Sequence record: KY703222
DNA length: 64,000 nucleotides
Origin: Escherichia phage phiC120
Strand: one strand, 5' to 3'
Within the stretch, counting starts at the first letter, position 1. Each line of letters starts with the position of its first letter. Of the stretch, positions 6,436 through 36,674 are shown one piece after another. A model generated the notes under the pieces. The model worked only from the letters and a program-made list of their open reading frames with translations, did not search any database and had not been told where the DNA came from. The translations under genes were made by a program, and so were the position numbers.

Positions 6436-9400
6436 ATGGTTGACATCAAACGTAAGTTCAGGGCCGAAGATGGTCTTGACGCAGGCGGTGATAAGATAGT
6501 TAACGTTGCGCTTGCTGACCGCACAGTTGGCACCGATGGCGTGAACGTTGACTTTTTGGTGCAAGAAAACACCGTACAGAATTATGACGATACGCGCGCG
6601 TATACAAAAGATTTTATTGTTCTTTATGATAATCGTTTTTATCAAGCTTTAAGCGATATTCCAGCTCCGGCAGGCCCTTTCTCTTTGGCTAAATGGAAGG
6701 CAACTCGTACAGATGCAGAATGGATTACAGTTCAAGGCGGAGATTTCCAATTATCAGTAGGTAACTCTATTGCGGTTGATACTTCAGCTGGCACTGATAT
6801 TAATTTCACTTTGCCTCAAAATCCTTTAGATGGCGATACAGTTATTTTGTCTGATATTGGCGGTAGAGTAGGCTATGTAAAAGTTCAAATTACTGCAGCG
6901 GCTCAAAGTATTGTAAACTTTAGAGGACAGCAGGTTCGTTCAGTTTTAATGACGCACCCAAAATCTAAAATGGTCTTCATTTTTAGCAACCGCCTATGGC
7001 AAATGTATGTTTCTGATTACGAACGTAATGCAGTCACAGTAACTCCTGCTAAGCCATATCAGGCGCAACCTAACGATTTTATCATTCGACGTTTTACATC
7101 AGCCGCTCCTATTAATATTACATTGCCTCGCAATGCTAATAATGGCGATATTATTAATTTAGTTGTTTTAGACAAATTAAACCCATTATATCACACAATT
7201 GTCAAAACTTACGATGATACAACTTCTATACGAGAAGCCGGTGTTCATGTAGCAGAAGGACGTAATACTGCGGAAGCATTCTTTGTTTATGATTCTGCTA
7301 ATAGCTTATGGCGTGTTTGGGAAGGTGACCAGAAATCTCGTTTACGTATAGTTCGTAATGATACTGATTTACACCCTAATGAAGAAGTTCTTGTTTTTGG
7401 AACTAATAATGATACAATCTCGACGGTAAATCTTACTTTGCCTACAGATATTTTGTCTGGTGATACTGTTAAAATATCGTTGAATTATATGCGTAAAGGG
7501 CAAACTGTAAAAATTAAAGCTGCCGAAGGCGATACAATTGCTAGCAGTATTTCTTTATTACAGTTCCCAAAACGTTCAGAGTATCCACCTGATGCACAAT
7601 GGGTTTCTGTTAATGAGTTGGAATTTAATGGTGATACTTCGTATGTACCTGTACTTGAGTTAGCTTATATAGAAGATTATTCATCTGAAACAAAATATTG
7701 GGTAGTTCAACAAAACACCGTAACCGTCGAACGAGTCGATGCATCGAGCAATACAACTCGAGCTCGTTTAGGTGTTATTGCTCTTGCTTCTCAAGCGCAA
7801 GCAAATGTTGATTTAGAAAATGCTCCTGGTAAAGAACTGGCTATTACTCCGGAAACATTAGCAAATCGTACAGCAACTGAAACTCGTCGTGGTATTGCTC
7901 GTATTGCAACAACTGCACAAGTTAACCAGAACACCGATTTTGCATTCCAAGACGACTTGATTATTTCTCCTAAGAAATTGAACGAACGTACAGCAACTGA
8001 AACCCGTAGAGGTGTTGCTGAAGTTGCAACTCAGGCTGAAACTAATGCTGGCACAGATGATACCACTATTATTACTCCTAAGAAATTGGATGCTCGTCAA
8101 GGTTCTGAAGTTTTATCTGGTATTGTAAAATACACATCTACGACTGGTACTACAGCTGCTACTATTCGTGGTAATGCTGGGACTAACGTTTATAACAAAG
8201 CTGTAGATAATTTAACTATTTCTCCAAAGGCTCTTGACCAGTATAAAGCTACCCCTACTCAACAGGGCGCAGTAATTCTTGCTATTGAAAGTGAAGTTAT
8301 CGCTGGCGAATCACAAGCCGGTTGGGCTAATGCTGTAGTGACTCCTGAAACTCTGCATAAGAAAACTTCTACTGATGGACGTATTGGTTTAATTGAAATT
8401 GCTACGCAAGCAGAAACTAACACTGGAACTGATTATACTAGAGCAGTAACGCCTAAGACGTTAAATGATAGGAAAGCTACGGAAGGATTATCCGGCATAG
8501 CCGAAATTGCTACGCAAGTTGAATTTGATACTGGAACTGACGATACTCGTATCTCGTCTCCACTGAAAATTAAAACTCATTTTGATTCTTCTGACCGTAC
8601 CAGTGTTAATTCTGATTCCGGACTTATTGAAGAAGGAACCTTGTGGAACCATTATACTCTTGATATTTCTAAAGCAAATGAAACACAACGCGGTACACTT
8701 CGCGTAGCGACCCAAGCAGAATCTAATGCAGGAACTTTAGATGATGTTCTTATTACTCCTAAAAAGCTTTTAGGGACTAAGTCCACTGAAACATCTGAAG
8801 GTGTAATTAAGGTTGCTACTCAAGATGAAACTGTAACGGGAACTTCTGCTAATACTGCTGTATCTCCTAAGAATTTAAAATGGATTGTTCAATCAGAACC
8901 AACATGGGCTGCTACTACGGCAATTCGTGGATTCGTTAAAACTTCATCTGGTTCTATTACATTCGTTGGTGACGATACTCAAGGTAGTACCCAGGACCTG
9001 AATCTTTACGAGAAAAATAGTTATGCTATTTCTCCATATGAATTAAACCGTGTACTTGCTAACTATTTGCCATTGAAAGCTAAAGCCGTAGATAGTAATC
9101 TGTTAGATGGTCTAGATTCTCTTCAGTTCATCCGTAGAGACATCGACCAGACGGTTAATGGTTCTTTAAGTCTTACTAAACAGACCAACCTGAGTGCTCC
9201 TTTAGTATCTACAAGCACTGCTTCTTTTGGGTCCGAAGCATCTGTTACTCGTAGATTAACTCTTAATGACTCTAGCGGTTCCGAAATAGTTTTCACTAAA
9301 GGAACTCAATCTCTTAGTAATAAAGAGAATTTCGTTGTTAGAGCATGGGGTAATAGCGCTACAGATGGTGCCCGTGATACAATATTTGAAGCTGGTGACG

Positions 9401-30940: not shown

Positions 30941-31364
30941 ATTTAAATTTAATTTTCTGAAGTGCATCAATTGCAGCCAGGCGCCCTTGTTCACTTTTAA
31001 CTGTAATGACCACATCGCCTGATACGATCACCGAACCATCAACAAATTCTATAGAGCCTTTTTTGAAATCAACAGATGTATCTGGTTCCGGAACTTCTTC
31101 AAAGAATTTAAATTCTGCACCATAAAGCAGAATATCACCTTGCATACTATGAATAGTTCGGCCATAATCGCCTACGGCTTCTACAGCAATAACCGAAACA
31201 CCGTAACCAATCATCTCTTCCACAATAAAATCTTTGGACAATAAAGTAGTATGCAGATTAGTATTAAGACGTTTACCAGTCGTATTAAGAATTCTCAAGA
31301 AATTATCTTCCTGTCCTTTGATAATACGATATTTCTTACCAACTTCAAAACCTTTAAAAGCCAT
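30939..31364 (-). CDS. Hypothetical protein (141 aa; T4 39.1/goF region)
   Basis: ORF track; synteny only. Confidence 0.4.
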   Translation of the reverse strand: MAFKGFEVGKKYRIIKGQEDNFLRILNTTGKRLNTNLHTTLLSKDFIVEEMIGYGVSVIAVEAVGDYGRTIHSMQGDILLYGAEFKFFEEVPEPDTSVDFKKGSIEFVDGSVIVSGDVVITVKSEQGRLAAIDALQKIKFK

Positions 31365-31366
31365 AA

Positions 31367-31546
31367 TTAACCCTTCTTAAGTAAGTCGTAAAAACCACCG
31401 TTCACATGTTTAGGAGCAGAAACCCGACGAGTAGACAGACGATGACATTCAGGGCAAACATCGTTTTCTCGTTCAGAAATCCTTTTAATTTTTTCATATT
31501 CATGGCCACAATCTTCAGATTGACATTTATAGTCGTATAACGGCAT
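31367..31546 (-). CDS. Small zinc-ribbon protein (59 aa, C-x4-C ... C-x2-C)
   Basis: Own translation [41 protein letters not shown]...; TAATG overlap with upstream gene. Confidence 0.45.
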   Translation of the reverse strand: MPLYDYKCQSEDCGHEYEKIKRISERENDVCPECHRLSTRRVSAPKHVNGGFYDLLKKG

Positions 31547-31959
31547 TATTGTTCCTTAAAATGTGCTTTCAACATTTGATACAAAGACCATGCCTGGTCA
31601 TTATTTTCGATAGTAATCGTCATCACAGGAAATTCAGACAATTCGTCAAGTTCACCAGAATCTTGCTCTTCGGACGCTTGATACGGATTTCCAACTTCAT
31701 CAAAAAACTCTGCTTCACTAGTAGAGAGCCAGATAAAGTTTTCATCAAGAATATCACCACCAGTTGCGTATCCAACCATGCCAGTAGATGTCACAATTTT
31801 AGTAGGTCGTCCAAGATGGTCAACATCTAATACTTTAAATGGTTCCATGCCAAGACGTCGTGCATAAATCCCATTATCAGTGTGGTTTTTAATAAACTCT
31901 TCTTGGGCACGTTTATCTTTAAATTGGTACCATGAGTTAACGCGGAATTTATTAGCCAT
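31546..31959 (-). CDS. Hypothetical protein (137 aa from ATG 31959)
   Basis: ORF track start at 31977 is TTG; ATG at 31959 overlaps the upstream stop (TAATG). Confidence 0.45.
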
Positions 31960-32186
31960 TAGTAAGTTTCCTTCCAATAAGTTGTACCATTTTCAGTGAT
32001 TTCACGGAAGATACCATAGATAGGCATTTCATCACCGAGTTTTTCGTAAACGTAAACCACTTCAGTGTAGCATAAAAATTCAGTCCAGTTTTTCTGTACA
32101 ACAACTAAATCAGGATTAAACAGAACATCTTCAAACTCATCGATGTTTGAATCAGTAGTTACGTTTTTAATGATTTGACGTTTCAT
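31959..32186 (-). CDS. Hypothetical protein (75 aa from ATG 32186)
   Basis: Internal ATG preceded by GAGGAG RBS; the longer ORF-track form would span the promoter. Confidence 0.4.
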
Positions 32187-32214
32187 AATATTCTCCTCTT
32201 GTTTTGATAGATCT

Positions 32215-32243
32215 ATAGTATCATAGACCATAGTTGTTGTACA
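32215..32243 (-). promoter_or_regulatory. Early promoter variant (TGTACA-17-TACTAT)
   Basis: Minus strand GTACAAcaactatggtctatgaTACTAT. Confidence 0.35.
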
Positions 32244-32768
32244 TCATTTTAGCAAAATAAAATCAACTTGTTCTGCCAATGAACGTCTAAACATTAATTG
32301 ACAACTTCCGAGGATGAAATCAGGTGCTTCATAGACCGCGATGTAGTATCCTTTAGCTTTCAAGAGTTCAACATCCACCTGGTCATCAAACCATGCATAA
32401 ACCGCGTCAACACTTTCAAATCCAAAATAGAACCCTTGAGCCCAATCTTCACTCAATTCAAATGTGTGCTCAATTCTATAGTATCTTAAGATATTTTGTT
32501 CAAGGAGTTTGTCTTCATTTACAGTAGGACGATTAGGGACATTATAGTTGTCGCCGTGATGGTAGAAGTTACCTGAGATTATTCCATGTTTATCAAGGAA
32601 CTCCCATGTTTCTTCAGAGTTGTCGGTGCCCGACCAACCGTATGGCGAACGAGGTTCTTTATTCCAAGAGGTTTCCCAAATTCTGACGGCTTTACCGTCT
32701 TCGATAGCAATTCCCGGTAATGATTCACGTTGAGTACAAAAACTACGTTCTACGCGGTAAACTAACAT
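32244..32768 (-). CDS. Hypothetical protein (174 aa)
   Basis: ORF track; GAGGAG RBS inside the inverted repeat. Confidence 0.45.
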   Translation of the reverse strand: MLVYRVERSFCTQRESLPGIAIEDGKAVRIWETSWNKEPRSPYGWSGTDNSEETWEFLDKHGIISGNFYHHGDNYNVPNRPTVNEDKLLEQNILRYYRIEHTFELSEDWAQGFYFGFESVDAVYAWFDDQVDVELLKAKGYYIAVYEAPDFILGSCQLMFRRSLAEQVDFILLK

Positions 32769-32772
32769 ATTA

Positions 32773-32817
32773 TTCTCCTCTGGTTGATATGGTTATAATA
32801 TCAAAACCAGAGGAGAA
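32773..32817 (-). repeat. Perfect 13-bp inverted repeat (TTCTCCTCTGGTT / AACCAGAGGAGAA) spanning the -10 of the early promoter; one arm contains the RBS of ORF 32244..32768
   Basis: Read directly. Confidence 0.7.
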
Positions 32818-32823
32818 GTAAAC
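32795..32823 (-). promoter_or_regulatory. Sigma70-type early promoter (GTTTAC-17-TATTAT)
   Basis: Minus strand GTTTACttctcctctggttttgaTATTAT. Confidence 0.45.
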
Positions 32824-32827
32824 AACT

Positions 32828-33247
32828 TTATGCGAAAGCAGCTGGGCTATATTTTTTAATTTGGAATTCAGGAACTACCATGAACTGTCCAGCGAAAACG
32901 ATGTTATAAAGCTTAACACCATCTTCTACCCAACGGTCGCTAATAAAACCAGCAATTTGCTTAGTTTTCCATGGCGTTCCATCAGTTGCCGCAGCAATAG
33001 TGAATTCATGGTCTTTTTCAACAGAAACTGATCTGCATAGTCCCCATTTGAACGCTTTTTCTTCTGGTTCAATGAATTGGCTTGAGACGTAGCCAATGTT
33101 GCCATCAGCATCACGAACTTTAACTTGATGTGGACTAAAGAGTCCACAACTTACAGAAAGAACTTCAACCAACTTCCCAGCAACTTTAGAGCGAGAAGCA
33201 ACAGGTACATATACGTAATCACCTGTAGAGAGATTTGCAATATTCAT
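32828..33247 (-). CDS. Hypothetical protein, tandem paralog 1 of 3 (139 aa)
   Basis: Shares SRSK(V/A)AGKLVEV and GFISD(R/Q)WVEDG(V/K)KLYNIVF motifs with the next ORF. Confidence 0.5.
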   Translation of the reverse strand: MNIANLSTGDYVYVPVASRSKVAGKLVEVLSVSCGLFSPHQVKVRDADGNIGYVSSQFIEPEEKAFKWGLCRSVSVEKDHEFTIAAATDGTPWKTKQIAGFISDRWVEDGVKLYNIVFAGQFMVVPEFQIKKYSPAAFA

Positions 33248-33256
33248 AATAATTCC

Positions 33257-33742
33257 TTAAGCTTTACGAGGAGACACATAGCGAGTGATTTCAGATTCTT
33301 CAACAACTCGGAAGTCACCTAAGAATACAATATTGTATAGCTTTTTACCATCTTCAACCCATTGGTCACTAATGAAGCCACACATAGTATCAGTTTTGCT
33401 TGGATAACCGTATTCATCGATGAAGTCAAATTCTTTATCAGTCTGGAATTCAACGCCTTTGCAAAGGGCCCATTTGAACTGTACATTATGCTCTGTGGAT
33501 TCAACTTTTTCTCTTGAAGCAAAAGCACTACTCACAGGCATTTCCAAGAACTTTGCACGAACATAAGCAAATTTGGTTTCCTGTGTCCCAAAACTAGGAA
33601 TAATACGAACTTTTACCTCAGAATCTTCATCTTTAACGCCTTCTTTAAGTTGAATACTTACAACTTCGACCAATTTTCCTGCGGCTTTAGAACGAGATTT
33701 GTTAGATACGCGAAAGATTTCACCAATAATACCAAGATTCAT
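33257..33742 (-). CDS. Hypothetical protein, tandem paralog 2 of 3 (161 aa from ATG 33742)
   Basis: Paralog alignment puts the start at MNLGII (ATG 33742); the ORF-track extension covers a promoter-like region. Confidence 0.5.
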   Translation of the reverse strand: MNLGIIGEIFRVSNKSRSKAAGKLVEVVSIQLKEGVKDEDSEVKVRIIPSFGTQETKFAYVRAKFLEMPVSSAFASREKVESTEHNVQFKWALCKGVEFQTDKEFDFIDEYGYPSKTDTMCGFISDQWVEDGKKLYNIVFLGDFRVVEESEITRYVSPRKA

Positions 33743-33772
33743 AATTTCTCTCTCTTTGTTTAAATTGAATTC

Positions 33773-33801
33773 ACTATACTCCATCCATCCTTGGATGTAC
33801 A
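33773..33801 (-). promoter_or_regulatory. Early promoter variant (TGTACA-17-TATAGT)
   Basis: Minus strand TGTACAtccaaggatggatggagTATAGT upstream of paralog 2. Confidence 0.35.
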
Positions 33802-33804
33802 ACA

Positions 33805-34299
33805 TTAATTAAGGATATTAACCACAGCACTACGTGGAACTACACTAAAATCACCTGCATGAACAACGTTCAGAAGTTCAACACCGTCTTCAATCCACTG
33901 GTCAGTTACCCATCCATTTACTGGACCTGTGAACGGGCGTCGAATTGAAACATATTTACACAGCAAATCAGTAGGCTCAATAGGCTTAATCAGAGTACCG
34001 TACATACAAGCGATATCCATATCAATACAGATGTCTTTAACGGGTTCTACTTCTTCAATCAACAGTTCAAAGTCTGTGCTTGGAAGGGCGGTAGTAGAAA
34101 TTGTACCATATGAATTTTTAATTTCTAAGAATAACCAAGGGCCTTCAGCTTGTTTGATGAAGTTAACAATAGTGAAACTATTGCCTTGAGTGGCACCTAA
34201 AATTTCACAAAACTTTTCGTAAGCTCGCACTGAAGCACTGTACCAGTTGATTTGTTTTTCGTCTTTCAGGATGTAAGTAGCCGTAGTATTGATATTCAT
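33805..34299 (-). CDS. Hypothetical protein, tandem paralog 3 of 3 (164 aa)
   Basis: C-terminal VTDQWIEDGVELLNVVHAGDFSVVP matches the paralog motif. Confidence 0.5.
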   Translation of the reverse strand: MNINTTATYILKDEKQINWYSASVRAYEKFCEILGATQGNSFTIVNFIKQAEGPWLFLEIKNSYGTISTTALPSTDFELLIEEVEPVKDICIDMDIACMYGTLIKPIEPTDLLCKYVSIRRPFTGPVNGWVTDQWIEDGVELLNVVHAGDFSVVPRSAVVNILN

Positions 34300-34330
34300 A
34301 ATGTTTTTCCTGTTTGGTTAAGATAGAAAG

Positions 34331-34360
34331 ATTATACTCCAACCATCCTTGGTTGTAAAC
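34331..34360 (-). promoter_or_regulatory. Sigma70-type early promoter (GTTTAC-18-TATAAT)
   Basis: Minus strand GTTTACaaccaaggatggttggagTATAAT. Confidence 0.45.
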
Positions 34361-34365
34361 TGATT

Positions 34366-35043
34366 TTATCGCTGTTTTACACTTAACGGGTCAGGATTCT
34401 CAGGGACATCTTCAAGGCCAAGCGCATAACGCTGAGCATATTTTAACATCAAAATATCTTTAGCACAATCATGAACACTATCATGGGCAACGAATCCTTT
34501 TAGCGTACCCATTGGTAACGGACACATACTTAATCCTCGCGTCAACAAGTAAGCTTCGATTGCCGTACGAATATCGCGTTGAGCCCAGAATTTAACCGGT
34601 TCTAATTTATCAGTATCAATCTCTGGTTCAAGAACACCTTCATCACGATAGAGATCACGAATCAAATCGACCAAGATCGGGAAGTCAAAGCTCATACCAC
34701 GGCACCACATTTGCGATTTCCATTGGTCAACTTTATTAGCTCGACAATAATCTAAAAAGATTTTAATGCCTTCAAGCGTAGTGACATCGTCTTCAGACGG
34801 AGCCAGGTTTTTACGTGCTTCTGCTGATTGTTCTTTCCACCATTTCATAGTGGATTTAGCGAAAACTCGCTTCCCTTTTTGAGAAGCTAAATTAAATTTA
34901 ATTCGCTTACCTCGTTGAACAAGTTCTTCAAATGATTCAACAACTTCAGGGTCGGAATTATATGCAATAACCGCCAGGTCAATAACAGCCGCTTTTGATG
35001 TATTGCCGAATGTTTCAAAATCTATAATAACATCAGTGCTCAT
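34366..35043 (-). CDS. dexA: Exonuclease A (DEDD family)
   Basis: 225 aa (T4 227); N-terminal IIDFETFG motif; synteny before dda. Confidence 0.8.
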   Translation of the reverse strand: MSTDVIIDFETFGNTSKAAVIDLAVIAYNSDPEVVESFEELVQRGKRIKFNLASQKGKRVFAKSTMKWWKEQSAEARKNLAPSEDDVTTLEGIKIFLDYCRANKVDQWKSQMWCRGMSFDFPILVDLIRDLYRDEGVLEPEIDTDKLEPVKFWAQRDIRTAIEAYLLTRGLSMCPLPMGTLKGFVAHDSVHDCAKDILMLKYAQRYALGLEDVPENPDPLSVKQR

Positions 35044-35052
35044 AATTTTCTC

Positions 35053-36366
35053 TCAAATAAAATGGACGTCAAAACGACCACGAGTTGTGCCGACATACAA
35101 TAGTTGTTTAGCTAATTCTGAATCGGCATAATGGATGCACGGTGTATAAACAAAGGCCGTGTCAACAGACATACCCTGGGCCTTATGGAAGGTTGATACT
35201 GGTAGTGCCTTCACCTTAGTGAACATACGTTTAGCATCCCAGAATTCACTCCATGGAGCTTTACCACCTTTATTCCAGAATTTGTATGTTTCTGCAGTCT
35301 TAGCCAAAAACAAATTGAATTTATAAAGCTCTTCTTCGGAAGAAATAACCTTTATATCCTCGCGGACGTATTCTTCATCATCCCCATATGTTTCTACTGT
35401 AAGATTCCAGTATCGTATCATATATTCGCCTGAAACACCACGTGCTTTAACGAATGTAGACGTTTCTACAGCATCTCGAATACGAACGAATTGCCCGTTA
35501 TTGAAAAGCATTTCAGTCATATTTTTGCCATCTAGCTTGTATGTCTTAGTAAATGGCTCTTGTAGAACAATGACTTCGTCTTTAATAAATGGCTTTTCTG
35601 TTTCAAGAAGTTTTCGGCGAATAATTGAATTTAACTTGTCCACCGACTTATTTGTGAATGCCATCATTCGATTTTCGAAAAGGTCTTCAGGAGTTTTAAC
35701 GACATTAAAATAGTTCATCATATACGATTTAAGGTCTGTATATCCATGAACACCGTGCCCATCAACTACTTTATCGTAAATCCATTTGCCGTTACGAATA
35801 TCAGTCGCAACATCAATAATTGGCGCATTGCTACGTTTAACTTCTGTAAGGTTGCATTGCACGAAGTCTTTGTGTGTGAAGAAAGGACTTAGATACGCAG
35901 TGGATTCGCCTGGGTCTACCGGTCGAATCTGACATCGGTCGCCAATTCCAATTACTGTACACCATTTAGGGATACTAGCTAACATTATTTTAAACAGAGG
36001 ACGGTCGCACATTGACGCTTCATCAAATAACAGTACACGACACAAGGCTAAGTCGGGAACCTTTTTCTGTTCAAACAATACGTTTTCTTCGTATGTAGTT
36101 GGGTTGATTTTAAGAATGCTATGAATAGTCGATGCTTCTTGACCTGCAAGTTTGCTTAGAACCTTTTTAGCAGCATGTGTAGGGGCTGCTAAAATAATAC
36201 CTGATTCTCCAGAAGAAATAAGGGCTTCAACGATGAATCTAGTAAGGGTTGTTTTACCTGTACCAGCAGGTCCATTAATAGTTACGTGATGTTTCTTTTC
36301 TTTAATAGCTTTCATAACAACGTTGAAGGCGTTTTTCTGGCCTTCGGTCAAATCATCAAATGTCAT
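35053..36366 (-). CDS. dda: DNA helicase Dda (SF1B)
   Basis: 437 aa (T4 439); near-identical to T4 Dda as recalled, Walker A GPAGTGKT. Confidence 0.93.
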   Translation of the reverse strand: MTFDDLTEGQKNAFNVVMKAIKEKKHHVTINGPAGTGKTTLTRFIVEALISSGESGIILAAPTHAAKKVLSKLAGQEASTIHSILKINPTTYEENVLFEQKKVPDLALCRVLLFDEASMCDRPLFKIMLASIPKWCTVIGIGDRCQIRPVDPGESTAYLSPFFTHKDFVQCNLTEVKRSNAPIIDVATDIRNGKWIYDKVVDGHGVHGYTDLKSYMMNYFNVVKTPEDLFENRMMAFTNKSVDKLNSIIRRKLLETEKPFIKDEVIVLQEPFTKTYKLDGKNMTEMLFNNGQFVRIRDAVETSTFVKARGVSGEYMIRYWNLTVETYGDDEEYVREDIKVISSEEELYKFNLFLAKTAETYKFWNKGGKAPWSEFWDAKRMFTKVKALPVSTFHKAQGMSVDTAFVYTPCIHYADSELAKQLLYVGTTRGRFDVHFI

Positions 36367-36674
36367 CGTAAAGTCCCTGCAATTGGAATACTAACAATAC
36401 GGCCAGTATCTAGAATTCGTTGATACAATCTTTGCGTCTCCGCATCTAGTTTAACGTGTTTCATTTCAAGCTTATTAAACCAGAACTTACGCGGAGTTTC
36501 GACCATTCTTAGAACTCCCATTTTTAAATCGGTTTTATACTGTGTTTTCAAAGTATCGAAAACTTTATCTGCAATATCCTTTCTAAAAAATACTGCAGGA
36601 CGATATTCATCAAGAGGAACAGGGACAGTAAATCCTTCCATATCTCGATAAACTATTGCATATACATAAACCAT
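36363..36674 (-). CDS. Hypothetical protein (103 aa, dda.1 position)
   Basis: ORF track; ATGA overlap with dda. Confidence 0.45.
   Translation of the reverse strand: MVYVYAIVYRDMEGFTVPVPLDEYRPAVFFRKDIADKVFDTLKTQYKTDLKMGVLRMVETPRKFWFNKLEMKHVKLDAETQRLYQRILDTGRIVSIPIAGTLR

Follow-up and report, generated by a model that had tools for sequence, protein, structure and literature searches.

The motB.1/motB gene cluster of Escherichia phage phiC120: a tandem gene pair and a third gene with a common C-terminal domain

The early region of Escherichia phage phiC120 contains three small, adjacent genes with a common sequence motif, which raises the question of how these genes are related to each other and what their products might do. 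A first-pass annotation of the 64,000-nucleotide stretch analysed here (sequence record KY703222; hereafter the window) had interpreted them as a tandem triplication of one small early gene, each copy with its own promoter-like element, and had suggested diversification, for example against different host targets. The three open reading frames, here termed g1, g2 and g3, are present on the minus strand at the positions then assigned to them (Table 1), and they are indeed related, adjacent genes of a phage early region whose family has diversified.

Identity and layout of the cluster

On sequence grounds, we assign g3, g2 and g1 to the motB.1/motB/motB-like (RB69ORF010c) cluster of an RB69-like T-even phage. 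The DNA of the window is 99.3% identical to phiE142 and ∼98% identical to Mosigvirus phages. In the GenBank annotation of relatives, g1 appears as “RB69ORF010c similar to motB”, and the equivalent of g3 in Shf125875 is described as “similar to RB51 and RB69 motB.1”; the annotated phage relatives share 97–99% DNA identity with the window. g2 is the positional and sequence orthologue of T4 MotB, to which it is ∼56–58% identical and with which it shares a full-length Pfam match. The maximal open reading frame of this middle gene reaches position 33805, but because the extension includes a promoter-like site and the alignment with T4 MotB begins at the methionine at 33742, we chose the latter as its start.

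On the minus strand of the window, the genes are arranged in the order dda-dexA-g3-g2-g1-motB.2-cef-goF. This location in the dispensable dexA-cef early region, in early direction, is as expected for the MotB family of Tevenvirinae. The order from dexA to motB.2 and cef is the same in RB69 and Shf125875; T4 and RB6 show the same neighborhood, but with motB.2 shifted, and T4 lacks a second motB copy of the g1 type. RB69 has all three genes, arranged alike between the same flanks, with 91% identity between g1 and RB69ORF010c, ∼98% between g3 and RB69 motB.1 and 97–99% for the flanking genes, whereas the MotB alleles are only 76% identical. The “motB.1” of RB68 is 70% identical to g3.

The cluster as such is already known from the GenBank annotation and from the work of Patterson-West et al. 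(2021), which cover the genes, the family, the common C-terminal domain and the extra motB copy of RB69-type phages; according to the latter, RB69 has two motB copies and motB.1, with a common C-terminal domain and differing N-terminal domains. The discovery value of our analysis is therefore small, and its worth lies in a tidier picture of this host-takeover module. Minor new points are a predicted SH3/Tudor-like barrel, the restriction of a basic N-terminal domain to MotB orthologues, purifying selection, natural hybrid genes and a frameshift in T4 MotB.1.

Table 1. Features of the motB.1/motB cluster in the window
Feature	Position	Strand	Description
g1	32828..33247	−	139 aa; second, shorter motB copy, RB69ORF010c type
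g1, segment for the common C-terminal domain	32831..33067	−	residues 61–139
g2–g1 junction	33248..33256	−	9 nt; Shine-Dalgarno AAGGA overlapping the g2 stop codon
g2	33257..33742	−	161 aa; motB orthologue
g2, segment for the common C-terminal domain	33260..33481	−	residues 88–161; FKW...GFISDQWVEDGKKLYNIVFLGDFRVV
Weaker promoter-like site upstream of g2	33773..33801	−	TGTACA-17-TATAGT, 9/12 matches
g3	33805..34299	−	164 aa; motB.1-type gene
g3, segment for the common C-terminal domain	33808..33978	−	residues 108–164; PTDLL...GWVTDQWIEDGVELLNVVHAGDFSVVPRS
Promoter-like site of g3	34331..34359	−	σ70/T4-early type; TTTACA-17-TATAAT, 11/12 matches

Sequence relationships and domain architecture

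Pairwise alignment revealed significant similarity between all three proteins, far above chance. g1 and g2 align over their full length (41% identity, E 2e-28), whereas the matches of g3 to g1 (E 4e-11) and to g2 (E 2e-10) are restricted to the region of the C-terminal motif and comprise solely the last ∼35–75 residues. All three proteins match the Pfam family PF17613 (MotB) above its curated gathering score of 25 bits (g1 74.6, g2 180.6 and g3 37.3 bits), with the match of g3 confined to residues 84–159 (profile positions 78–153). g2 and g1 belong to phrog_1671 (E 2e-69 and 2e-49), while g3 matches phrog_2333 over its full length (residues 1–164, E 2.1e-82). A profile–profile comparison of the MotB and MotB.1 alignments gave a probability of 99.7% (E 4e-25).

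Thus, the C-terminal motif is common to all three proteins, as had been proposed, but the N-terminal motif SRSK(V/A)AGKLVEV, likewise ascribed to all three, is found in g1 and g2 only: g3 lacks the MotB architecture of a KOW-like N-terminal domain with SRSKxAGKLVEV followed by the C-terminal domain, and its N-terminal half is the unrelated one of phrog_2333. Since g3 shares only the C-terminal domain, the array does not represent a triplication of one whole gene; by sequence comparison, it consists of one tandem duplication (g2/g1) and a third gene with one domain in common. A DNA repeat search identified only patches of 18–21 nt shared between the coding regions of the paralogues, which argues against recent duplication or gene conversion; the only longer repeat covers the promoter region. 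The chance that these similarities are accidental, or that the open reading frames are not genes, is negligible: nothing but their small size speaks for it, and the E-values of 2e-28 to 2e-10, the curated Pfam thresholds exceeded, orthologues numbering in the hundreds, dN/dS ratios below 0.4 and confident AF2 models all speak against it.

Each of the three genes encodes a small, mostly beta protein of two domains. In g2, a basic KOW/SH3-like N-terminal domain is connected by an acidic disordered linker (residues 72–85) to a C-terminal beta-barrel (residues 89–161); its AF2 model has a pLDDT of 82.4, with ∼94 for the C-terminal domain. g1 has the same two-domain layout as T4 MotB, including the SRSKxAGKLVEV motif, but with 22 residues fewer: a linker of 6 residues takes the place of the acidic one, the beta-hairpin insert of the N-terminal domain is missing, and this domain is charge-neutral. 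g3 combines a non-KOW, beta-rich N-terminal domain (residues 1–83) with a linker of low confidence (86–108, pLDDT below 50) and a MotB-type C-terminal domain (residues ∼112–164). In its AF2 model (pLDDT 79.6), the N-terminal domain contains strands at residues 8–11, 42–49, 55–61, 67–73 and 80–83 and a helix at 26–37. The corresponding domain of T4 MotB.1 has been described as LSm-like, in a family including GoF and Frd.2 (Kim et al. 2025); an N-terminal, bent five-stranded antiparallel beta-sheet with a flexible linker to the C-terminal domain served as the mark of this type, and the g3 model is compatible with it. T4 MotB.1 and g3 share the PHROG, the type of N-terminal domain and the MotB-like C-terminal domain. 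The T4 and RB6 proteins are about 37–48% identical to g3, which carries a conserved 16-residue linker insert, IDMDIACMYGTLIKPI, that is missing from T4 MotB.1.

The C-terminal domains of g2 and g3 are modeled with high confidence. They show the SH3-like barrel fold, in which a short 3-10 turn splits the last two strands; the marks of an OB fold, namely a five-stranded barrel whose third and fourth strands flank a helix and structural neighbors of the OB type, were not found. In these models, the common domain is therefore an SH3/Tudor-like barrel and not an OB fold. It carries a near-invariant loop, G-[WFY]-x-[TS]-D-[QR]-W-x-E-x-G. The likeness to SH3-like small beta-barrels (Tudor, chromo and PWWP domains of the “Royal family”, and KOW) is one at the level of the fold, with 12–18% identity and either MotB domain possibly being the one aligned, and it implies neither an aromatic cage nor methyl-lysine binding for MotB. 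Pfam gave no Tudor, chromo or PWWP match in g1–g3, and even at E up to 10, a profile of the C-terminal domain matched none of the chains in the whole PDB, so that no solved relative can be named by sequence.

Promoter-like sites and the g2–g1 junction

Only part of the suggestion that each gene has its own promoter holds. g3 is preceded by a good promoter-like site, which is identical in three Mosigvirus relatives. The 23 nt at its core are found again before g2, changed at three positions (no such match expected by chance), and over a stretch of 48 nt that includes the weaker g2 site, identity to the sequence preceding g3 is 75%; the core of this second site, CCAAGGATGGATGGAGTATA, is kept in four related loci. 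Use of both promoters is putative. By comparison, g1 begins 9 nt after the stop codon of g2, and within the 3′ part of g2, the promoter scan gave no candidate site on the minus strand. Because its Shine-Dalgarno sequence overlaps the g2 stop codon, the junction leaves no space for a promoter. The window and all five related loci with a g2–g1 pair, including that of Tequatrovirus RB6, have one and the same junction sequence, CCTCGTAAAGCTTAAGGAATTATTATG. Thus, g1 and MotB are probably produced from a single transcript, and translational coupling is predicted.

Recurring promoters between small genes are reminiscent of PeSLs (promoter-early stem-loops), which consist of a strong σ70-like early promoter and a stem-loop, recur among the small genes of hyperplastic regions and are the means by which T4-type phages shuffle their modules (Arbiol 2010; Comeau 2014). 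As in such cassettes, related promoter sequences recur between small early genes here, and the gene order at these junctions differs between genera: motB.2 precedes motB.1 in T4 and follows ORF010c in the window, and g3, with its own promoter-like site, comes directly after dexA, whereas motB.1 of T4 and RB6 starts ∼10 nt after motB.2. The motB.2 gene is preceded by a TTTAC-type promoter with a strong stem-loop. Unlike PeSLs, the g3 and g2 promoter-like sites have no terminator-like stem-loop, and the stem-loop of motB.2, whose 5′ arm lies at 32805–32817, has both the –10 box and the ribosome-binding site inside it instead of forming an upstream terminator. We did not find these sites listed in the two PeSL papers. 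An Rfam search of positions 31000–36500 at E up to 0.1 gave only a sub-threshold Y_RNA match (26 versus 38 bits), which we treated as chance.

Evolution and possible roles

Purifying selection acts on all three genes, with dN/dS ratios (NG86) of 0.02–0.37. Relative to RB69, g2 shows a dS of 0.63, whereas dexA has 0.10 and motB.2 has 0.14. Because its dS is ∼5-fold above that of the flanking genes, we read the high divergence of motB as allele exchange. Positive selection was considered as the cause of this divergence within the genus and rejected, since dS climbs along with dN. In RB6, g1 (84% identity to the window) and motB (74%) are better conserved than dexA (68%) and motB.2 (35%), and the g2–g1 pair moves between phage lineages as one unit. 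In addition, recombination at the conserved motifs shared by the tandem paralogues gives rise to natural motB::ORF010c hybrid genes, such as P0044 and P0035. P0044 is present in five contigs from at least three sequencing runs, so an assembly chimera is unlikely, and the DNA identity of the paralogues is too low for collapse by an assembler; P0035, which comes from a single contig, could be a chimera.

The MotB family is narrow: from the 1.84 billion representatives of the whole library, a search with an HMM of the MotB alignment retrieved no more than 36 clusters (50% identity). A scan of IMG/VR with g1 yielded three loci only, and the comparative work was consequently based on GenBank phage records and Logan contigs. 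Orthologues of g1 at 80% identity or more were found in 205 of 776 phage records. The copy number in related phages, which the first-pass annotation had proposed to determine, varies from one to three per genome (1679 places in 779 records).

What these proteins do has to be considered in the light of T4 MotB. This early protein binds DNA non-specifically, both unmodified and glucosyl-hmC DNA, co-purifies with H-NS/StpA and is toxic upon expression (Patterson-West 2018, 2021). We consider it probable that the locus is best explained as a motB.1/motB/RB69ORF010c cluster of two-domain beta proteins with the following domain roles. By homology to its T4 counterpart, g2 would be an abundant early protein that coats DNA non-specifically. 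It would alter the seating of H-NS/StpA on DNA, derepressing some H-NS-silenced host genes, and would modestly increase burst size. MotB also reportedly compacts DNA, a point on which our reading does not rely. Net charge, although a crude proxy for DNA binding, separates the subfamilies: the N-terminal domain has a mean of +6.3 in MotB-type (n = 63), +0.5 in g1-type (n = 13) and –3.0 in MotB.1-type proteins (n = 30), compared with –2.5, 0 and –2.2 for the C-terminal domain; in the window, the N-terminal domains of g2 and g1 carry +4 and +1. A strongly basic N-terminal domain is thus a feature of MotB orthologues only and, judging from charge and fold, would be the DNA-binding part of MotB. 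For the same reasons, the neutral-to-acidic SH3/Tudor-like C-terminal domain would be a module for protein–protein docking or self-association and not a DNA-binding OB fold, which shifts the likely DNA-binding role to the N-terminal domain. Lacking the positive charge and the acidic linker, the conserved extra copy g1 would be a sub-functionalised partner co-made with MotB, and g3 would present a different, acidic N-terminal domain on the same docking module.

An alternative view is that all three proteins are DNA-binding, nucleoid-associated proteins whose common domain is a cold-shock-type OB fold, with the copies raising dosage or covering differently modified DNA. A published HHpred analysis indeed placed the C-terminal domain of T4 MotB in SCOPe b.40.4.5 and allowed either domain to bind DNA. 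This domain is also the most conserved part of the family, MotB tolerates modified DNA as described above, and RB69-type phages use another modification, arabinosyl-hmC (PMC6024577). Nevertheless, we regard this view as very unlikely: the net charge of the C-terminal domain is zero or negative in each of the three subfamilies, its best-conserved loop is acidic (DQWxEDG) and g3 is acidic overall (pI 4.5). Moreover, the 139-aa copy also occurs in RB6, a phage of the genus whose type phage T4 has glucosyl-hmC, and therefore does not seem tied to arabinosylation.

The original proposal, that the copies of a triplicated gene diverged toward different host targets and that each is an independent toxin or inhibitor, draws on the variable copy number, on MotB alleles that differ by ∼25% in protein within one genus and on the combination of one C-terminal domain with at least four N-terminal architectures in the family. 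Diversification of this kind may or may not hold, but the proposal as a whole seems unlikely to us. There is no triplication, g1 has no promoter of its own, and dN/dS is well below 1 in all three genes where an arms race would predict positive selection; the high MotB divergence pairs with a high dS, as in allele exchange. The known targets of MotB are DNA and H-NS only, and T4 motB.1 knock-outs show no phenotype. A PADLOC scan at E up to 0.1 matched no family for g1, g2, g3 or motB.2, which says little about counter-defence because PADLOC holds defence proteins and not anti-defence proteins.

The docking role assigned to the C-terminal barrel in our preferred reading can be taken further, to an extension that we consider rather doubtful. 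Here, the barrel would carry interchangeable N-terminal heads (basic KOW-like, neutral KOW-like, LSm-like and at least two further types in relatives of 180 and 250 aa) to one partner, which could be H-NS/StpA filaments, RNA polymerase or another member of the MotB family. g1 would then act as a charge-neutral partner or antagonist tuning the DNA coating by MotB, and the tandem copies, by crossing over unequally at their conserved motifs, would have an inherent means of producing new hybrid alleles.

For MotB.1, a deletion in T4 has no phenotype under laboratory conditions, and the protein has no effect in an RNA reporter assay. Its records contain frameshifts. In the RB69 record, two single-base insertions split motB.1 into a 132-aa protein and the 29-aa “ORF012c”; motB.1 of the window is intact. 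Comparison of the records likewise indicates that the annotated T4 reference MotB.1 of 119 aa is a frameshift artefact, as other T4 records encode 143 aa. Both the 29-aa peptide of RB69 and the commonly used 119-aa protein of T4 thus trace back to frameshifts in old records, and work based on NC_000866.4 may have been done with a MotB.1 truncated at its C-terminus. At positions 7295–7314 of that record, the expected sequence is ATTGAAGATGG and not ATTGGAAGATGG.

A motB-family cluster with one shared domain

Three consecutive ORFs on the minus strand, g1 (a second motB copy of the RB69ORF010c type), g2 (the motB orthologue) and g3 (motB.1), lie downstream of dda and dexA and are followed by motB.2, cef and goF (see table). 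In the records of close relatives, their counterparts are labelled "RB69ORF010c; similar to motB", "MotB" and "similar to RB51 and RB69 motB.1", respectively. Over positions 32200 to 35100, the DNA shares 99.3% identity with Escherichia phage phiE142, which is classed under Carettavirus, and ∼97.8% with Mosigvirus phages, for example Shf125875; the match extends across hundreds of T-even phages. The identity of the three genes as a motB-family cluster is close to certain. They are known genes of a known family, already described in annotation, in the 2021 MotB paper and by Kim et al. (2025).

Features of the motB region (window positions)
Feature	Position	Strand	Description
motB.2	32244-32768	minus	174 aa
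g1	32828-33247	minus	ORF, 139 aa
g2	33257-33742	minus	ORF, 161 aa
g2 promoter-like site	33801..33773	minus	weaker than g3 site
g3	33805-34299	minus	ORF, 164 aa
g3 promoter-like site	34359..34331	minus	near-consensus TTTACA-17-TATAAT
dexA	34366-35043		upstream neighbour
dda	35053-36366		upstream neighbour

The first-pass annotation had described three tandem paralogues sharing an N-terminal and a C-terminal motif, an observation that is real but was described partly wrongly. Pairwise alignment confirmed the similarity: g1 and g2 align from end to end (41% identity, E 2e-28), whereas g3 matches only the C-terminal parts of g1 (E 4e-11) and g2 (E 2e-10). Against Pfam family PF17613 "motB", whose curated threshold is 25 bits, all three score higher (g1 74.6, g2 180.6 and g3 37.3 bits), the match in g3 being confined to residues 84-159. 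PHROGs places g1 and g2 in phrog_1671 (MotB-like) and g3 in phrog_2333, and when the MotB and MotB.1 alignments are compared profile to profile (99.7% probability, E 4e-25), the match is confident in the C-terminal domain. Hence, the C-terminal motif is common to all three proteins, but the N-terminal SRSK(V/A)AGKLVEV occurs in g1 and g2 and not in g3. The idea of a triplication with diversification against host targets finds only partial support, since g1 and g2 are full-length relatives but g3 is related to them only at the C-terminus. Patterson-West et al. (2021) had sorted 102 homologues into MotB-like and MotB.1-like proteins with the same C-terminal and other N-terminal domains, and had listed two motB copies, one motB.1 and one 29-aa peptide for RB69.

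In phiE142 and Shf125875, MotB is annotated with 175 aa from a start that precedes the Met at 33742; the maximal g2 ORF comprises 182 aa. The upstream start is probably annotated in error, because the extension (33743-33805) holds the promoter-like site at 33773-33801 and is lacking in T4 MotB.

Two reference records carry frameshifts in motB.1. The T4 reference (NC_000866.4 / AF158101.6) contains one extra G (ATTGGAAGATGG, positions 7295-7314, L002:2296-2315 in the T4 locus), which cuts MotB.1 to 119 aa within the conserved GWVTDQWIEDG motif; the intact C-domain continues in the +1 frame. An uninterrupted 143-aa MotB.1 is found in 11 other T4 genome records as well as in RB55 and RB59; AF158101.6 / NC_000866.4 alone requires two pieces. 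As the MotB.1 literature cites NC_000866.4 and a 13.8-kDa protein, published work may rest on the truncated form. In RB69 (AY303349, L004:1482-1978), motB.1 has two single inserted bases (CCGTTTC and GACGGTTGTT) compared with the intact 164-aa gene of the window and is split by them into 132 aa and the 29-aa "RB69ORF012c", so that the published "Category 3 peptide" of 29 aa is the tail of a frameshifted motB.1.

Domain structure and inferred roles

We modelled g2 and g3 with AF2 using family alignments. In the g2 model (mean pLDDT 82.4), residues 1-68 form an N-terminal beta domain, residues 72-85 a disordered acidic linker and residues 89-161 a five-stranded C-terminal barrel (pLDDT ∼94). The g3 model (mean pLDDT 79.6) comprises an N-domain (residues 1-83), a linker of low confidence (86-108) and a barrel of the same type at about 112-164. 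No solved relative was found by sequence. Structural matches of the whole models include the PHF19 Tudor, MRG15 chromo, Spt5/NusG KOW, PWWP and BAH domains. A published HHpred suggestion for the MotB C-terminal domain is an OB fold. Our reading differs: no OB-fold protein is among the best 60 structural matches of either model, in both C-domains the final two strands are joined by a short 3-10 turn, as in an SH3-like topology, and the helix between strands 3 and 4 of the OB topology is absent. We therefore read the predicted C-domain as an SH3/Tudor-like barrel, with the caveat that both N-domains are small barrels too and may account for matches of the whole models.

T4 MotB binds unmodified and glucosyl-hmC DNA tightly and without sequence specificity, up-regulates 75 host genes, about one-third of them in the H-NS regulon, and doubles the burst size (PMC6070864, PMC7827196). 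Kim et al. (2025, PMC12152347) assigned the N-domain of MotB.1 to an LSm-like fold, with GoF and Frd.2 as relatives, and saw no phenotype in motB.1 knock-outs. Mean net charges of the N-domain, linker and C-domain are +6.3, –4.5 and –2.5 in the MotB-type subfamily (n = 63). In the 139-aa g1-type (n = 13), N- and C-domain average +0.5 and 0 around a linker of six residues, and in the MotB.1-type (n = 30) –3.0 and –2.2, the linker not being used. The whole-protein pI in the window is 5.6 for g2, 6.7 for g1 and 4.5 for g3. We infer that the basic, KOW-like N-domain of MotB is the seat of non-specific DNA binding, and that the C-domain common to all three more probably serves in protein interaction or self-association; we regard this assignment of functions as moderately likely. 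By homology, g2 would be a MotB-type early protein that coats the nucleoid and remodels H-NS. Its charge-neutral paralogue g1, presumably co-expressed with it, would have sub-functionalised after duplication instead of supplying the DNA-coating activity a second time, and g3 carries another head on the common C-terminal module.

The low-confidence g3 linker contains a 16-residue motif (IDMDIACMYGTLIKPI, residues 92-107, window 33979-34026, minus strand; pattern [IVLF]D.D[IVL][AVS]..Y...P[IVL]). Among 240 family members, 69 carry it, at varying positions: N-terminally in 180-aa forms and between the domains in 250-aa forms. It is missing from the 143-aa T4-type MotB.1 and may serve as a short linear motif for docking. 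A Y_RNA Rfam match within the g3 coding sequence (34057-34150, minus strand; 26.1 bits, below the gathering threshold of 38, E 0.044) was treated as chance.

Promoters and the g2-g1 junction

Separate promoters had been proposed for all three genes. This holds for g3 and, with a weaker site, for g2, but not for g1, which lies 9 nt behind the g2 stop codon, its Shine-Dalgarno sequence overlapping that stop. The g3 and g2 sites have a 23-nt core in common that differs at three positions; by chance, no such match would be expected. They sit within 48-nt stretches that are 75% identical to each other. The g2-g1 junction CCTCGTAAAGCTTAAGGAATTATTATG is the same in all five related loci having the pair, including Tequatrovirus RB6. 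The sequence suggests that g1 shares a transcript with g2 and is probably also translationally coupled to it.

Upstream of motB.2, an early-promoter-like TTTACT-16-TATTAT (within 32773-32822, minus strand; –35 at 32817-32822, –10 at 32795-32800) is embedded in a strong hairpin (arms 32805-32817 and 32773-32785; –24.6 kcal/mol, z –5.45) whose 3′ arm includes the ribosome-binding site GAGGAG. This suggests that the ribosome-binding site is masked in read-through but not in promoter-initiated transcripts. In T4 and RB6 the gene is located elsewhere and the hairpin structure, not its sequence, is kept, suggesting that promoter, hairpin and motB.2 travel as a unit.

Distribution, hybrids and exchange

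The C-domain occurs at 1679 places in 779 phage records (mean 2.2 per genome). Copy number in related phages ranges from one, in some Klebsiella and Edwardsiella phages, through the usual two (motB and motB.1) to the three of the window. The family is narrow: of 1.84 billion representatives, a whole-library HMM search returned no more than 36 clusters (at 50% identity). Orthologues of g1 with at least 80% identity are present in 205 of 776 records, RB6 (gene order dexA-motB.2-motB.1-motB-g1) among them; T4 has no counterpart.

Natural hybrids connect g2-type and g1-type genes. The protein P0044, found on five contigs from at least three runs (including L008:3001-3492, L009:2199-2690 and L010:37-528), fuses the N-domain and linker of a T4-type MotB to a g1-type C-domain at the breakpoint FKWKL. 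In L010 it is directly followed by the genes located 3′ of g1 in RB6 and thus replaces the motB-g1 pair. In a second hybrid, P0035 (L011:555-1073, a single short contig), MotB sequence gives way to g1 sequence after GFISDQWVEDG. Both hybrids fit unequal crossing-over at conserved motifs.

Across g1, g2 and g3, dN/dS (NG86) is 0.02-0.37, and the locus is a mosaic. The MotB proteins of the window and RB69 are only 76% identical, compared with 97-99% for dexA, motB.1, motB.2 and cef. Because dS is 0.63 for motB against 0.10 for dexA, 0.14 for motB.2 and 0.06-0.25 for the flanks overall, the divergence points to a motB allele replaced by recombination and not to positive selection. Between RB6 and the window, g1 (84%) and motB (74%) are more similar than dexA (68%) and motB.2 (35%), so the motB-g1 pair has moved between genera. 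The g1 proteins of the window and Shf125875 differ at 14 residues, with g2 and g3 97-99% identical between both phages.
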